Of a DNA stretch of 64,000 bases, positions 20,847 through 26,274 are shown in pieces. The stretch comes from Candidatus Latescibacterota bacterium (GTDB taxonomy: Bacteria; Latescibacterota; UBA2968; UBA8231), in assembly GCA_965242865.1 (NCBI GenBank), contig CBDETK010000013.1:224001-288000 (forward strand), given 5' to 3'. Under the pieces are notes generated by a model. That model was not told the DNA's origin and did no database searches. It was given only the letters and a program-made list of their open reading frames with translations. The position numbers and the translations under genes are program-made. Each line of letters begins with the position of its first letter. Position 1 is the stretch's first letter.

Positions 20847-21625
20847 TGGCCGACATCCTCCGCGAAATAGCCGCATACAAGCGCGAGTTCGTTGCCAGCC
20901 GCCAGCGGCAGCGCAGTTTGGCCGAGGTGCGCGCTCGCGCCCGCGACACGCCCGCGCCGGCCGATTTCCGCGGTGCATTGGCGGCCGACGGGATCGCGCT
21001 GATCGCCGAGCTAAAAAAAGCCTCGCCCTCCCAGGGCATCCTCCGCGCCGACTTCGACCCGGAGCGGATCGCCGATGCATATAGGGCCAACGGCGCGCGC
21101 TGCCTTTCGGTATTGACGGACGAGGCGTACTTTCAGGGGCGCGATGATTACGTACAGAGGGCCAAAGAGGCGGCCGGCTTGCCGGTGTTGCGCAAGGATT
21201 TTACCATCGACGACTACCAGCTCTACGAAGCCCGCGTCATCGGGGCCGATGCCATTTTGCTGATCGCGGCCCTGCTGGACTCCAGCCAGCTCGACGACTG
21301 CCTCGGCTTGGCCAGCGAGTTGGAATTGGCCGCGCTCGTCGAAGTCCACGATGGGGCGGAATTGGCGCGGGCCAAAGCGGCTGGGGCCAGCCTCGTCGGC
21401 GTCAACAACCGCGATCTGCGGACCTTTGAGACCCGCTTGGATACCACGTTCGCGCTGTTGGATCAGATGCCAGAGGGAGCGGTCGTCGTCAGCGAGAGCG
21501 GTATTGCCGGCCGCAGCGATGTTGAGCGGCTCGCCGCGGCCGGAGTCGATGCGATCTTGGTCGGCGAATCCCTGATGCGGGCCGCCGATATGGGGAGCAA
21601 GGTGAGGGAGCTAGTGGGCGCGTGA
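20846..21625 (+). CDS. trpC: Indole-3-glycerol phosphate synthase
   Basis: IAELKKASPS, SVLTD, LRKDF, GVNNRDL, SESGI. Confidence 0.96.
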   Translation: MADILREIAAYKREFVASRQRQRSLAEVRARARDTPAPADFRGALAADGIALIAELKKASPSQGILRADFDPERIADAYRANGARCLSVLTDEAYFQGRDDYVQRAKEAAGLPVLRKDFTIDDYQLYEARVIGADAILLIAALLDSSQLDDCLGLASELELAALVEVHDGAELARAKAAGASLVGVNNRDLRTFETRLDTTFALLDQMPEGAVVVSESGIAGRSDVERLAAAGVDAILVGESLMRAADMGSKVRELVGA

Positions 21626-22605
21626 AAAAACGAGTGTTTTCGGGCATTCAGCCCTCGGGCCACATCCACCTCGGCAACTACCTCGGGGCCGTCCGCAACT
21701 GGCTGGTCAACCTACAAAACCGCGACAACATCTTCTGCGTGGTCGATCAGCACGCCATCACCGTGCCCCACGACCCGCAGGCGTTGCGCGTCGGCACCCG
21801 CGAGGCCGTGGCCCTGTACATCGCCTGCGGCCTCGATCCGCAGCAGTGCCGCCTCTTTGTGCAGTCGCATATCCCAGAGCACACGGAGTTGGCGTGGCTG
21901 TTGACCTGCATTACGCCCATGGGCTGGCTGGAGCGGATGACCCAGTTCAAGGATCGGGTGGGGGCGCGGCGCGAGCGCGTCGGCACCGGGTTGTTCGTCT
22001 ATCCGGCGTTGATGGCCGCCGATATTTTGCTCTACCAAGCGCACGAAGTGCCCGTTGGCGACGACCAAAAGCAGCACGTGGAGCTAACGCGCGATCTGGC
22101 CGAGCGCTTCAATCGCCAGTTCGGGGCGGTCTTTACCGTGCCCGAGCCGGTCATTCCCACAGTCGGGGCGCGGATTATGGGGCTCGACGATCCGACCGCG
22201 AAAATGTCTAAGTCGGCCGAGGGGCGGTTCCACCGCATCGGCCTGCTCGACAGTCCGGACGCGGTGCGCAAGGCCGTCATGCGGGCGGTGACCGATTCGC
22301 AGCGGGACATCGTCTTCGACCGGCAGCGCCCCGGGCTGCACAACCTCCTAACCATCTACCAAGCGTTGACGGGCCTCGCGCCGGCCGCCATTGAGGCGCG
22401 GTTTGCCGGCAAGGGCTACGGCGACTTAAAGAAGGAATTGGCCGCAGTGATCATCGCCGAGATCGAGCCGATTCAGGCTCGCTATCGGGCGTTGCGGGCG
22501 GATCCGGCCTATATCGACCGGGTGCTCGCCGAGAGCGTCGAAAAGCTGCGCCCGATCGTGGATGCCACCATGGACGCCGTCCGCCGGGCGCTGGGGCACC
22601 GATAA
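21622..22605 (+). CDS. trpS: Tryptophanyl-tRNA synthetase
   Basis: SGIQPSG, HLGN, YPALMAADIL, VGDDQ, KMSKS. Confidence 0.96.
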   Translation: MKKRVFSGIQPSGHIHLGNYLGAVRNWLVNLQNRDNIFCVVDQHAITVPHDPQALRVGTREAVALYIACGLDPQQCRLFVQSHIPEHTELAWLLTCITPMGWLERMTQFKDRVGARRERVGTGLFVYPALMAADILLYQAHEVPVGDDQKQHVELTRDLAERFNRQFGAVFTVPEPVIPTVGARIMGLDDPTAKMSKSAEGRFHRIGLLDSPDAVRKAVMRAVTDSQRDIVFDRQRPGLHNLLTIYQALTGLAPAAIEARFAGKGYGDLKKELAAVIIAEIEPIQARYRALRADPAYIDRVLAESVEKLRPIVDATMDAVRRALGHR

Positions 22606-22615
22606 GAGAATAGCT

Positions 22616-22879
22616 ATGGACCTAAGTGACTGGCGCGAACGCATAGATACCATTGACCGGCAAATGATCGATCTGCTCAACGAGCGCATGCGCTGCGCCC
22701 AAGCGATCGGGCGGCTCAAAAAGGCCGCGGGAAAACCCATCCGCGATCCCGAGCGCGAGCGCGCGGTGATCTCCAAGGTCAAAGCCTACAACCAAGGGCT
22801 GATTACGGACGAAGCCCTAGCCGAGCTCTACTGGCTGCTCATCAAGTTGACCACGGACTTCGAGCGCGAGGAGCCCTAG
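22616..22879 (+). CDS. Chorismate mutase (AroQ class)
   Basis: LSDWRERIDTID..L.ER...IG.LK....IRDPERE. Confidence 0.9.
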   Translation: MDLSDWRERIDTIDRQMIDLLNERMRCAQAIGRLKKAAGKPIRDPERERAVISKVKAYNQGLITDEALAELYWLLIKLTTDFEREEP

Positions 22880-23976
22880 TTTTCTTCCGGCGGGTCGTCA
22901 TCGTCGGCGTGGGCTTGATTGGTGGCTCAATAGGCTCAGCACTCCGGCGCACCGGCTTTGGCGGGCGGGTCGTGGGCGTCAGTCGCCCCGCAACCATCGC
23001 CCGCGCCCTAGAGTTGGGCGTGATCGACGAAGGGTGGGGCTACGGCGAGTTGGAGCCCGCGCTCAAGGGAGCCGATCTGGTCTTTCTCTGCACCCCGATT
23101 AAGCGGATTCTCGCGCTGATTGCGGACGTGGGGCGGCTCGCCGAGCCGAGGACCCTAGTGACCGACGTCGGGAGCACCAAGCGGCGCATCGTGGCCGCGG
23201 CCCAAGCCCAGTTTGGCGACGAGGTGTACTTTGTCGGCGGCCACCCCATGGCCGGCTCGGAAAAGGCCGGCGTGGCCGCGGCCGATCCGTTCCTCTTCCA
23301 GAATGCGATTTACATTTTGGTCCCCAACCCACAAGTGCCAGCCGACCGCTACCAAGCCTTGACCGCGCTCTTGCGACAGCTCGGAGCGCGGGTGCTGGAA
23401 CTCGACGCCGAAGCGCACGACCGGGCGGTCGCGGCCATCAGCCACCTGCCGCAGATGATCGCGACCTCGCTGGTGAGTATGGTCGGGCGGCTCAATGCCG
23501 AGCGCGACCACTTCTTGCCGCTGGCCGCTGGGGGCTTCCGCGACCTGACGCGGATTGCCGCCAGTCCGTTTTCGCCGGTGTGGGAGGATATTTGCGCGAC
23601 CAATGCCGACCAGATTCGCGCCATGATCGACCGCTACATGGCCGCGCTCGCCGCGGTGCGGGAGCGGCTGGAGGAAGCGGAGCTCAAGGCGGATTTCGAT
23701 TTTGCCAATGCGGTGCGCGGCGCGATCCCGCGGGATTCAAAGGGGTTCATTCACGCGCTGTACGAGATTTTGGTGCTCGCCGAAGATCGCCCGGGAGTCA
23801 TCGCCGAGATCGGGCAGGCACTGGGGGCCGAAGGGATCAACATCAACGACATTGAGGTAATGAAGGTGCGCGAGGGCGAGGGGGGGACGCTGCGGTTGGG
23901 GTTTGATAGCGCGGAGAGCGCGGAAGACGCACTGAGGATTTTGGCGCGGCTCGGGTACGTGGCGCGGAGGCCCTAA
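22879..23976 (+). CDS. tyrA: Prephenate/arogenate dehydrogenase with C-terminal ACT domain; no canonical start before the Rossmann motif
   Basis: VVIVGVGLIGGS, TDVGSTK, GGHPMAGSE, SHLP, GGFRDLTRIA, DRPGVI; probable start position 22879 reads GTT. Confidence 0.88.
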   Translation, partial: VFFRRVVIVGVGLIGGSIGSALRRTGFGGRVVGVSRPATIARALELGVIDEGWGYGELEPALKGADLVFLCTPIKRILALIADVGRLAEPRTLVTDVGSTKRRIVAAAQAQFGDEVYFVGGHPMAGSEKAGVAAADPFLFQNAIYILVPNPQVPADRYQALTALLRQLGARVLELDAEAHDRAVAAISHLPQMIATSLVSMVGRLNAERDHFLPLAAGGFRDLTRIAASPFSPVWEDICATNADQIRAMIDRYMAALAAVRERLEEAELKADFDFANAVRGAIPRDSKGFIHALYEILVLAEDRPGVIAEIGQALGAEGININDIEVMKVREGEGGTLRLGFDSAESAEDALRILARLGYVARRP

Positions 23977-23979
23977 GCG

Positions 23980-25203
23980 ATGGAAGAAATCGTCCGCCCC
24001 GTCCAGAAAATTGCCGGGCAGGTCTCAGTGCCCGGCGAGCAGGTGCCCGGCGAGCGCGCCCTCGTATTGGCCGCGCTGAGCGAAGGGGCTAGCGTCGTCG
24101 GCAACGCGCCCGTTGCTGTGGGCCGCGTGGTCGCTTTGTTGCGCGCCCTCGGCGTTGACATTGCCGAGCGCGCCGGCGGCTATGCGGTGCGCGGCGTTGG
24201 GTTGCGGGGGTTTCGGCGCGCCGAGGAACCGCTTGACCTAGAAGGATTGGGCGACACGGCCCTGTTGTTGCTGCCCTTGCTCGCCGGACAGACGTTTCGC
24301 TCGCGGGTGAAGTTGGGCGCGGAAGCCGAGCGGTGTCGGCCCTTGCTCGCCCTACTGGCCCAGCTCGGGTTCGCGGTCGAACAGGAGCGCGCCGACACCT
24401 TGGTAACCGGGGGACAGCAGGCCAAAGGGTACGTCCTCTCCGAAGCACCGCCGACCGACGCCGTAGCACTGGGGGCACTAGTCGGTGCGCTCTTTGCCGA
24501 GGGGACGACCGCGCTGAAAGCCGGCCGTAGGGTGGAGCGCTGGTTGCGCGGGCGCGGGGTTGCGGTCGAGCGGCGCAAGCTCCTGTCGGTAGCAGGGGGG
24601 CAGGCGTTGCGGGGCGTTGACGAGGAGGTGCCTGGGCAACTCGCGTTGGCGTATCCGCTCATCGGGGCCGCGCTATGCCGCAAGGGGTCGGACCTAACCA
24701 TCCAGCGCGTGGCCATCCGCCCTCGGCAGCGGGCTTTCTTGGATCTGCTGCGGCAGATTGGGGCGCAGATCGCCGCGCAAGACCGCGGAGGAAGCGCGTG
24801 CGATTTGCGCGTGTGCGCCAGCCCGTTGAAGGGTACACGCGTGGCTGGGCAGCGGGCGGCCAAGGTCGCCGATCAGATCGCGCTGTTAGCGGTCTTGACG
24901 ACCCAAGCCACCGGGACGACGGTCCTCCGCGACATTGAGGACGTGCCGCACGTGGAGCACTTGTGCGCCGCGCTGCGCTCGCTCGATGCGCGGATTGGCC
25001 AGTTCACAGAAGGGCTGGTCATCAAAGGAGGCTTCCCGCTTCAGGGCGGCCAGCTCAATGGCCGGGGCGATCCGAACTTAGTCATGGCTTTTGCCGTGGC
25101 CGGGCTGTTGGCCGAAGGGGCGTTGACCATCCAAGGCTGCGAGTGCTTGGCGTCTAGCTGGCCCGATTTTTTTGAGACCGTTCACCTTATGCGAGGAGAT
25201 TGA
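23980..25203 (+). CDS. EPSP synthase (AroA)-like protein lacking most catalytic residues
   Basis: Overall AroA layout (G.V.VPG..RAL.LAAL.EG; MAFAVAGL; C...SWP.FF), but the KS, SSQ, KExxR and DHR motifs are replaced. Confidence 0.75.
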   Translation: MEEIVRPVQKIAGQVSVPGEQVPGERALVLAALSEGASVVGNAPVAVGRVVALLRALGVDIAERAGGYAVRGVGLRGFRRAEEPLDLEGLGDTALLLLPLLAGQTFRSRVKLGAEAERCRPLLALLAQLGFAVEQERADTLVTGGQQAKGYVLSEAPPTDAVALGALVGALFAEGTTALKAGRRVERWLRGRGVAVERRKLLSVAGGQALRGVDEEVPGQLALAYPLIGAALCRKGSDLTIQRVAIRPRQRAFLDLLRQIGAQIAAQDRGGSACDLRVCASPLKGTRVAGQRAAKVADQIALLAVLTTQATGTTVLRDIEDVPHVEHLCAALRSLDARIGQFTEGLVIKGGFPLQGGQLNGRGDPNLVMAFAVAGLLAEGALTIQGCECLASSWPDFFETVHLMRGD

Positions 25204-25205
25204 AG

Positions 25206-25346
25206 ATGCGAGGACTCTTTCGGCTTTCTGTGTGCGCGGCCGTGCTGTTGGGCGGCGGCCTGCTCGCCATCCGCCTGCTCTACGGCGTGTCGTGGCGCGA
25301 ATCCTTGGAGATTGCCAACGGCTTCATCGAGGATTTATTGGGGTGA
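25206..25346 (+). CDS. Small membrane protein, 46 aa (MRGLFRLSVCAAVLLGGGLLAIRLLYGVSWRESLEIANGFIEDLLG)
   Basis: SD gaggag, ATG 2 nt after the aroA-like stop, TGA overlapping the aroE GTG; one hydrophobic helix. Confidence 0.7.
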   Translation: MRGLFRLSVCAAVLLGGGLLAIRLLYGVSWRESLEIANGFIEDLLG

Positions 25347-26239
25347 TTTCCGCGACGACGCGGGTGCTCGGGGTCATCGGCGATCCGGTCGCGCACTCGG
25401 CGTCGCCGGCCATGCACAACGCCGCGCTTAGGGCGCTGAATCTCGACTATGCGTACGCGGCGTTCCGCGTCGCAGCCACCGCCTTGCCCGAGGCACTCGC
25501 CGGTATGCGCGCCCTCGGCATGGTCGGCCTGAATGTAACCGTGCCGCACAAGCAGGCCGTTATGGCCCATCTCGACGAGATTTCCCCAGAGGCCCAAAGC
25601 ATTGGCGCGGTCAATACCATTGCCAACCGCGCTGGCCGGCTCGTGGGGTACAACACCGATGCGTTTGGGATTGTGCAAAGCCTCAAGGCCGATGGCGGCT
25701 TGGACCGGCTGCCGCCCAAGGTCGCGCTGCTGGGGGCGGGCGGCGCGGCGCGGGCCGTGCTCTACGCGCTGCTGGCGCGGCCAGAGGTGGAAGAGGTGCT
25801 GCTGCTCAACCGCACTGTGGAAAAGGCCGCTGCCCTCGCCGGCGATCTCGACCGCGCCGGCAAGGTCCGGGTCGGGTCGCTGGCTGAGACCGGGCCGGTC
25901 GCGGCCGCGGGTTTGCTCATCAACGCCACGGCCTTGGGGATGCACCCCGACGTAGCTGCTTCGCCGCTGGCAGACCCGTCGTGCCTGCACGCGCAGATGC
26001 TGGTTGCCGACATTGTGTACAACCCCTTGGAAACCGCGCTCATGCGGCAGGCCGTGGCCGCGGGTGCGGCCGCGATCAACGGCTTGGGGATGCTCGCTTG
26101 GCAGGGGGCGCGCTCGTTTGAGATCTGGACCGGGGTCGAGCCGCCGGTTGAGGCGATGAGGGCTGCGCTAGAGGATGGAGGGGAGGAGGGACGGCATGAT
26201 GGAGGGGAGGGACGGCACGGGGGCCGTCCCTTACGTTGA
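25343..26239 (+). CDS. aroE: Shikimate dehydrogenase
   Basis: GDPVAHSASP, NVTVPHK, GAVNT, NTD, GAGGAARA, NRT, DIVYNP, GLGML; GTG at 25343. Confidence 0.95.
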   Translation: MISATTRVLGVIGDPVAHSASPAMHNAALRALNLDYAYAAFRVAATALPEALAGMRALGMVGLNVTVPHKQAVMAHLDEISPEAQSIGAVNTIANRAGRLVGYNTDAFGIVQSLKADGGLDRLPPKVALLGAGGAARAVLYALLARPEVEEVLLLNRTVEKAAALAGDLDRAGKVRVGSLAETGPVAAAGLLINATALGMHPDVAASPLADPSCLHAQMLVADIVYNPLETALMRQAVAAGAAAINGLGMLAWQGARSFEIWTGVEPPVEAMRAALEDGGEEGRHDGGEGRHGGRPLR

Positions 26240-26274
26240 GCCGCCGGTTGAGGCGATGAGGGCTGAGCTAGAGG
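26138..26274 (+). repeat. 37-bp direct repeat (100-bp period) of the aroE 3' end, flanking a GTAG-type palindrome
   Basis: gagccgccggttgaggcgatgagggctg(c/a)gctagagg at 26138 and 26238; gggacggcacgggggccgtccc-ttac lies between. Confidence 0.85.

Follow-up and report, generated by a model that had tools for sequence, protein, structure and literature searches.

EPSP synthase (5-enolpyruvylshikimate-3-phosphate synthase, EPSPS, the product of aroA) is a textbook essential enzyme and the target of glyphosate, and its class II form is represented by structures from Bacillus halodurans (3rmt), Coxiella burnetii (3slh/4egr), S. pneumoniae (1rf4) and CP4 (2gg4). It also occurs as part of a bifunctional prephenate dehydrogenase/EPSP synthase, the fused TyrA-AroA (NF011381 / PRK14806). 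Inactive paralogues of pathway enzymes have been described in other pathways, such as HisZ, a paralogue of histidyl-tRNA synthetase (HisRS) that regulates HisG, and PyrC', an inactive dihydroorotase required for the assembly of the aspartate transcarbamoylase (ATCase) of Pseudomonas. Here we describe an AroA-like open reading frame (ORF) of 407 codons, referred to as psA, located at 23980..25203 of a 64,000-nucleotide stretch (“the window”) from a Candidatus Latescibacterota bacterium (assembly GCA_965242865.1, contig CBDETK010000013.1, positions 224,001 to 288,000 of the forward strand, on which all window features given below are encoded), which appears to be a stripped relic of a class II aroA that is maintained within a shikimate operon.

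With the class II EPSP synthases, psA shares the PF00275 family, a predicted two-domain fold and a position after tyrA, whereas it differs from them in keeping only three of 18 tabulated ligand-binding and catalytic positions, in the deletion of the KETDR segment, in a sub-cutoff score against the aroA model, in the presence of a separate canonical aroA and in the existence of single-domain derivatives. The tyrA-then-aroA order is also that of the TyrA-AroA fusions, and NF011381 is the best NCBIfam match of psA (model positions 306-721); here, however, the two genes are separate, the AroA part appears to be dead, and the score of 180.8 bits is far under the cut-off of 902. As with HisZ and PyrC', psA would be a dead pathway-enzyme paralogue encoded with genes of the pathway and held under purifying selection beside an active paralogue, but HisZ and PyrC' have an experimentally known partner and mechanism, and the resemblance is by analogy only.

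The psA frame starts with an ATG 3 nt after the stop of tyrA, with a GGAGG upstream, and runs without internal stops to a TGA at 25201-25203, as the preliminary description of the locus, which had been made by eye, had stated in reporting a full-length 407-aa ORF after tyrA. Against PF00275 the protein scores 121 bits, with residues 6-400 aligned on model positions 2-416, which places it in the EPSP synthase superfamily, and against the aroA equivalog TIGR01356 it scores 140.8 bits (138.1 in the genome scan), below the cut-off of 287.25. The MurA equivalog cut-off is not reached (TIGR01072, 34.3 bits vs a cut-off of 392.7), and no other family was matched in Pfam or NCBIfam. Among solved structures, class II enzymes are the closest, with 3rmt first (E 4.7e-47), followed by those of Coxiella, S. 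pneumoniae and CP4.

The loss of functional residues was followed in alignments to E. coli AroA (NC_000913) and in a HMMER alignment to PDB 3rmt, using as reference what we take, from the 1G6S literature, to be the ligand-binding and catalytic residues of the E. coli enzyme, that is K22, S23, R27, N94, G96, R124, S169-Q171, D313, K340, E341, R344, H385, R386 and K411. At these positions psA has Q in place of K22, V in place of S23, GLGDTAL..L at the N94/G96/T97/R100 loop, P in place of H385, N in place of R386 and S in place of K411 (the last being missing also from some active class II enzymes), and the corresponding readings of the preliminary description (KS to QV, GNAGT..R to GLGDT..L, DHR to DPN and K411 to S) were all recovered. 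The loss of S169-S170-Q171, given there as a change to PTD, is likewise real, with the replacement being PTD or TDA depending on the alignment. The K340-E341-x-x-R344 (KETDR) segment, on the other hand, had been misread as EDVPH, the alignments to both 3rmt and E. coli AroA showing a five-residue deletion in the 407-aa form. Three of the 18 positions are kept in one alignment, and R27, R124 and D313 are kept in the others; the reported retention of R27, the RP motif and D313 thus holds for the window protein, but it carries little weight as evidence because R27, R124 and D313 are not conserved among the relatives of psA.

For comparison, the class to which the window belongs was sampled as four families (f1-f4, with the window genus, g1, in f1) and 26 genera, the relatives being public metagenome-assembled genomes (MAGs) titled Latescibacterota. 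Sixteen more copies of the cassette gene from 15 further genera, covering all 12 genera sampled in f1, f2 and f4, with three extra rows of those families and one of a further family, f10, keep between one and four of the 18 positions, and the replacements differ by genus. K22 is replaced by Q, R, A, I, P, L, F or E across these copies, and D313 is unconserved too. Such genus-specific replacements suggest that the old active site is drifting and that no shared new constellation of residues takes it over. As judged from the alignments, psA lacks nearly all of the residues that bind shikimate-3-phosphate (S3P) and phosphoenolpyruvate (PEP) or serve in catalysis, and we infer that it no longer makes EPSP.

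The fold, in turn, is confidently predicted to be retained. The AlphaFold2 (AF2) model of the full-length protein, obtained with a 28-row alignment, has a mean predicted local distance difference test score (pLDDT) of 93.4 and a predicted TM-score (pTM) of 0.89, and a Foldseek search with this model returned class II EPSP synthases as the best PDB matches (E ~1e-36, probability 1.00), the highest TM-score, 0.82, being that to the Coxiella burnetii AroA chain 3roi_B. In psA the upper domain comprises approximately residues 20-212, and the lower domain is composed of approximately residues 1-19 together with residues 213-407.

A canonical aroA, which the preliminary description had proposed to look for in the genome, is located on the same 5.6-Mb contig, 4.4 Mb away from psA, so that contamination during binning cannot account for the pair. 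It encodes a 440-aa protein with all canonical motifs, which scores 425.7 bits against TIGR01356 and, being 44% identical to E. coli AroA, is class-I-like; a weaker match to the AroA model in the same genome (76.9 bits) is probably murA. Throughout the class, TIGR01356 was matched in all 81 genomes and exceeded its cut-off in 76 of them, and in the class genomes with matches listed the sub-cutoff matches are stripped copies, either full-length (~122-177 bits) or half-length (~100-114 bits, spanning model positions ~205-413). The canonical copies of the class form two score groups, one of ~331-373 bits, found in most of the other f1 genera, and one of ~413-469 bits, found in the window genus, in three other f1 genera (g18 and g19 among them) and in f2-f4, which suggests that the working aroA arose or was replaced more than once.

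The stripped copies lie between tyrA and aroE in the four families of this one class of Latescibacterota-labelled genomes. In the families f5, f7 and f9, the same slot ahead of a conserved small ORF is filled by a class II AroA that keeps 16 of the 18 positions, the flanking genes matched being tyrA and aroE in f9, tyrA plus a part of aroE in f7 and neither of them in the f5 locus. In the three genomes checked in these families, this cassette gene is the sole aroA above the cut-off, while a stripped cassette copy is accompanied by a canonical aroA elsewhere in both of the f10 genomes checked. The presence of a canonical class II aroA in the same slot, as the only copy, argues that psA is the displaced ancestral aroA. 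psA is shown in this way to be the in-situ descendant of the class II aroA of an ancestral tyrA-aroA-small ORF-aroE operon. Most simply, the operon gene was displaced by a second aroA and then lost its catalytic residues in place. In the tree, the forks between the stripped clades of f1, f2-f4 and f10 are open and the branches very long, and catalysis may have been lost once or several times.

The persistence of psA as a coding gene is seen on several levels. The chance of 407 open codons at the local base composition is ~2e-5, and the GC content at third codon positions (GC3) is 0.79, similar to that of the neighbouring genes. Of 8000 candidates scored in a protein search, 227 were relatives with E <= 1e-10; among the best 120 of these 227, sequences 75-93% identical to psA and 407-415 aa in length make up most of the first 103, with approximately ten shorter, partial relatives (305-403 aa) among the matches listed and a second group there (P0104-P0120) that is 57-68% identical and ~423 aa long. 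These proteins are labeled “hypothetical protein” by NCBI and, for some, 3-phosphoshikimate 1-carboxyvinyltransferase by the Joint Genome Institute (JGI). An orthologue was found in 23 of the 24 other genomes of the genus, the sole miss being a genome that is 58% complete, and the three in-frame stops seen among the orthologues are terminal, lying 3 codons early. Open frames of the psA type extend across four families whose TyrA proteins are only ~55% identical. Of five runs listed as containing the stretch, none was of RNA.

Selection was estimated as the ratio of nonsynonymous to synonymous substitution rates (dN/dS) by the Nei-Gojobori method (NG86) with a codon bootstrap on 20 loci of the genus, with the neighbouring genes serving as internal controls and the pairs of relatives not being independent of each other. 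In g1, the ratio is 0.248 for psA (bootstrap 0.204-0.292), 0.091 for tyrA, 0.121 for aroE and 0.275 for the small ORF (bootstrap 0.146-0.420), with the two domains of psA being equally constrained (upper 0.247, lower 0.248). The preliminary description had taken psA for a maintained pseudoenzyme and not a decaying gene, and both the open frames of the orthologues and these ratios (0.25, and 0.14 for the half-size form described next) uphold that view: psA is, on the evidence of its sequence, a pseudoenzyme, an enzyme homologue with its catalytic residues lost, an active counterpart in the genome and purifying selection acting upon it.

In the genus g2 (family f2) and in f3, the slot flanked by tyrA and the small ORF holds a gene for a protein of only 215-227 aa. 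Its alignment indicates that the N-terminal hairpin is fused straight to the C-terminal half and that the upper domain (~psA residues 20-212) is gone, and its model (pLDDT 93.0, pTM 0.90) superimposes on one domain of a class II EPSPS with a query TM-score (TMq) of 0.82 and a root-mean-square deviation of 2.7 Å. In g2 (11 genomes, three of them entered twice, giving 14 rows), dN/dS of the half form is 0.141 (bootstrap 0.096-0.175), as compared with 0.101 for the C-terminal part of TyrA, 0.132 for AroE and 0.076 for the small ORF. The f2 genera g21, g23, g24 and g26 carry full-length stripped copies whereas g2 carries halves, the excision junctions of the f2 and f3 halves differ, and in the tree the f2 halves join the full-length copies of f4 (94/93, under the star threshold of the tool), apart from the f3 halves. 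Taken together, these three observations point to two lineages having cut psA down to one domain independently. If the excisions were indeed independent, the convergence on the same retained domain would imply that the selected function sits there. In 23 stripped sequences, conservation reaches at least 80% at 48 positions, 34 of them in the retained domain, and R251 (100%), R258 (96%) and P343 are conserved in the same 23 rows and not in the canonical forms, so that they may be regarded, as a lead only, as a signature of the stripped forms. D255 is a further residue that the stripped forms conserve.

In the model that we favor, an ancestral operon of the order tyrA-aroA (class II)-small ORF-aroE would have been joined by a second, class-I-type aroA that took over EPSP synthesis, upon which the operon copy could lose its substrate-binding and catalytic residues while keeping its fold and open frame. 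Its retained, non-catalytic role would reside mainly in the lower globular domain, formed by the N-terminal hairpin and the C-terminal half, and would most likely be that of a protein-binding structural or regulatory subunit. This subunit would be produced together with the other products of the tightly coupled operon (TyrA, the small membrane protein and AroE), and its role would probably be tied to TyrA or AroE among them. A link with TyrA is suggested by the fact that TyrA-AroA fusions exist elsewhere and provide the best NCBIfam match of psA, by the retained domain holding the AroA N-terminus, which is where TyrA would adjoin AroA in such a fusion, and by the finding that, of the 18 class- and phylum-level loci with an AroA-like match, 17 have tyrA immediately 5' of that match (the other locus, L049, having no tyrA match). 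A complex prediction with TyrA, the small protein and psA, using separate alignments, scored 0.00 against a mark of 0.32, which speaks neither for nor against an interaction; its three-chain design is also unlike the calibration of the tool. As a whole, this account, from the in-situ origin through the loss of catalysis to a role as a subunit, is the best explanation that we can offer, and we hold it to be somewhat likely that psA is kept for such a non-catalytic job. The narrower proposal, that one EPSPS domain was co-opted as an independent, non-catalytic subunit for the assembly or regulation of TyrA and/or AroE, with the 46-aa protein perhaps organising them at the membrane, is put forward tentatively and would have the odds against it.

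Several observations weigh against a conserved role of this kind. The dN/dS of full-length psA is 2-3 times that of its neighbours, and NG86 gives only approximate values when genes are GC-rich. No surface or ligand site shared by all stripped forms could be recognized, R251, R258 and P343 being the only residues to stand out. In some lineages psA is dispensable, as in f13, where the small ORF and aroE are found, and f6, where the small ORF is found alone, with TyrA and AroA being encoded elsewhere. The series from full-length through half-size to absent can also be read as one of very slow reductive loss.

The main rival explanation takes this last reading further and regards psA as a relic that serves as an operon spacer, with the ORF kept for the passage of ribosomes to the coupled small ORF and aroE, or against polarity, and with a product that is compact, foldable and harmless, and that would be progressively shortened and finally lost. 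Such a role would sit well with the tight junctions of the operon (3 nt, 2 nt and a 4-nt overlap) and with psA containing the small-ORF Shine-Dalgarno sequence, and equally with the free drift of the former active site and the succession of full-length (f1, f4, f10), half-size (g2 of f2, f3) and missing (f13) forms. It is harder to reconcile with the enzyme-like constraint on the half form, whose dN/dS of 0.14 is on par with that of TyrA and AroE, and with a conservation of individual residues that extends across families, R251 and R258 being the clearest cases. Each excision, moreover, coincides exactly with a single structural domain, the remainder being a module whose fold is predicted with confidence, and the cheaper solution of an f13-like deletion followed by re-coupling was seen in none of the 67 class genomes in which the AroA-like gene and the small ORF were paired by hand. 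We regard the spacer explanation, progressive shortening included, as unlikely.

Somewhat less likely again is a neofunctionalised psA, in which a new site would bind another small molecule, making the protein a sensor or a different transferase. The upper domain of g1, constrained to the same degree as the lower one, would be expected of a ligand binder, as might the R27 and D313 kept in the window protein and the E341, R344 and R386 kept in the g2 halves; yet K22, R27, D313, E341, R344 and R386 all vary, so that no polar set of the cleft is common to the genera, the cleft cannot exist in the single-domain forms, and neither Pfam nor NCBIfam places the protein in any other family. A role as a metabolite sensor had been among the possibilities raised in the preliminary description, and it is weakened because the former ligand site varies freely between genera and half of the cleft has been lost twice. 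The version of it that was built on the retained R27, R124 and D313 was rejected as a general explanation, given the variation of these residues among relatives.

The ORF that follows psA encodes a conserved small protein of 46 aa (25206..25346), with its ATG at 25206, 2 nt after the psA stop, and its TGA at 25344-25346. A Shine-Dalgarno-like GAGGAG, read from the sequence, is located within the end of psA (25193..25198), 7 nt 5' of the small-ORF ATG, and the TGA overlaps the GTG start of aroE at 25343 (GTGA, a 4-nt overlap), so that the arrangement given in the preliminary description, a small protein 2 nt after psA with a strong Shine-Dalgarno sequence and a stop overlapping the aroE start, was correct in each of its parts. 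The protein has one hydrophobic stretch (Kyte-Doolittle 19-residue maximum 2.15), an N-terminal hydrophobic helix at approximately residues 4-25 and an acidic tail, and carries the motif I(R/K)xxYxCSWxE(S/A)xxIAxxFxxDLL; the invariant positions of the first alignment are M1, L7, G17, G18, I22, R23, Y26, S29, W30, E32, S33, I36, A37, F40, D43 and L44. A reading as a lipoprotein or signal peptide was considered and rejected, as the Cys before the hydrophobic core is unconserved in the alignment by eye.

The small protein matches no family in Pfam or NCBIfam and corresponds to 246 protein clusters without a family or any name beyond “hypothetical protein”; the nearest small-protein clusters in the Protein Atlas are equally nameless and were recognized under the usual level. 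The earlier term “unannotated” is thus apt in that no family is matched, but not in that homologues are already called “hypothetical protein” in some sources. A pattern scan of one genome per species returned 89 relatives, of which 80 were kept, nearly all from MAGs titled Latescibacterota or Latescibacteria or, under older names, Gemmatimonadetes, Gemmatimonadota or Gemmatimonadaceae, with six titled “(uncultured) bacterium”. By profile search the protein is present in 143 of 168 genomes of the phylum, in single copy except for a second weak or partial match in two of the 143; it occurs in f1-f4, f5, f6, f7, f9 and f13 and weakly in f10, and the same search was negative in f8, f11, f12 and f14. 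Within the genus, the order tyrA-psA-small ORF is kept in all 20 loci (two of the tyrA matches being truncated by the locus start), with aroE directly adjoining the small ORF in 18 of them, and in all 67 class genomes paired by hand the distance from the AroA-like match to the small ORF downstream of it is at most ~160 nt. The synteny and conservation of the small ORF, which had been marked for checking, are thereby confirmed, with its dN/dS being 0.28 in g1 vs 0.08 in g2.

This close association is what would speak for a membrane-tethered pseudoenzyme, in which the 46-aa protein anchors psA or a complex of the pathway at the membrane, since the two ORFs are adjacent and translationally coupled in every one of these genus loci and paired class genomes and the tail of the small protein is conserved. 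The small protein is, however, equally conserved beside an active class II AroA (f5, f7, f9), beside a stripped AroA and without any AroA-like neighbour (f6, f13), and its sequence shows no shift with the state of the AroA. In f13 the small ORF overlaps aroE at a locus without an AroA-like gene, as in L050 3953-4582 (genome G129), where small ORF and aroE follow directly 3' of an RNase P RNA gene (RF00010, 304 bits), and in f6 it stands amid unrelated genes. Equal conservation in the three settings suggests that the small protein is an older and independent member of the operon, not specific to the dead enzyme, and its tightest link is that with aroE, whose start is overlapped or nearly reached by the small-ORF stop in most loci. 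The specific coupling of psA to the small protein as a tether, as the preliminary description had it, does not stand in this light, and we consider tethering improbable, slightly more so than a new ligand site; under the favored model, the 46-aa protein would be a separate, older and phylum-wide component of the operon. That psA is an ordinary pseudogene in neutral decay, its frame open by chance, is very improbable indeed, for although GC-rich DNA has few stop codons and psA evolves faster than its neighbours, so long an open frame is hardly a matter of chance, the frames are intact in 23 of 24 genomes of the genus and across four families, and the dN/dS values of 0.25 and 0.14 have bootstrap upper bounds of only 0.29 and 0.18.

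Pseudoenzymes as such are known, but a dead EPSPS that is found class-wide and has given rise to stand-alone proteins of a single domain appears to be new. We know of no single-domain derivative of EPSPS. In the part of the literature that could be consulted, nothing was found on inactive or pseudo-enzyme forms of EPSPS, truncated or single-domain forms not being among the terms searched for, and nothing on a dead paralogue of EPSP synthase or of an enolpyruvyl-transferase or on the shikimate genes of Latescibacteria, subscription journals being outside the coverage. If the narrower proposal of an exapted EPSPS domain is correct, this domain would represent the first regulatory subunit derived from a dead EPSPS, and one that was arrived at twice by convergent excision. 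The genomes also offer a clean natural series, in which the active enzyme gives way to a dead, displaced protein of two domains, this to a single-domain module, and the module to loss. The stripped, half-size and absent stages have each been seen in genomes with an active aroA elsewhere, and the series makes a tractable case for the question of what non-catalytic roles sustain pseudoenzymes. Surveys of “aroA” or “EPSPS” in metagenomes can be expected to catch the stripped proteins, since JGI already names some of them 3-phosphoshikimate 1-carboxyvinyltransferase, and pathway copy number and herbicide sensitivity would be misjudged as a result. The small protein adds a second item of interest, being a predicted membrane protein that is uncharacterised, conserved across an uncultured phylum and embedded in a shikimate operon.

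The wider locus is a co-directional block of trpD, trpC, trpS, chorismate mutase, tyrA, psA, the 46-aa ORF and aroE, followed by argS, aroK and aroB. The chorismate mutase gene (CM_2, 22562..22879; PF01817, 87 bits; TIGR01807) overlaps as annotated the end of trpS (..22605) by 44 nt (region 21622-22879), and its Pfam match begins at residue 24, which places the true start probably further downstream. It is followed by tyrA (22909..23976), a prephenate dehydrogenase gene with a C-terminal ACT domain (PDH_N, PDH_C and ACT matches), and, beyond psA and the small ORF, aroE (25343..26239) encodes a shikimate dehydrogenase (Shikimate_dh_N, SDH_C; TIGR00507, 270 bits). The 3' end of this aroE is unusual in that a 100-nt insertion, bounded by a direct duplication in which 40 nt of the gene's 3' end are repeated at 95% identity, is located at 26135-26274; it contains a 21-nt tandem (GGAGGGGAGG-rich) and substitutes the C-terminal tail of AroE, with the original tail still readable downstream in another frame. 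A G/A-rich repeat that resembles the GGAGGGGAGG-rich insert is found between the small ORF and aroE of a relative (L034 4590-4920, genome G025), with coding potential for ‘GETGDGRRE’-like units.

Other insertions were noted in the corresponding region of relatives. In genome G007 (L009 2953-4136), the small ORF and aroE are separated, and their overlap is disrupted, by a gene for DarT (PF14487, 205 bits) together with one for a macro-domain protein, which make up a DarTG-like pair of the toxin-antitoxin or defence type. In genome G008 (L014 2108-3554), the small ORF is followed by a short DarT-like N-terminal remnant and then by an AAA_16/STAND-like ATPase, with aroE being absent from the 1.36 kb examined. 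Insertions seem to recur at this site, between the small ORF and aroE. In an f3 genome (G028, L032 2370-3531), a 69-aa ORF and an APH-family phosphotransferase gene (PF01636, 78 bits) are positioned between tyrA and the half-size gene.

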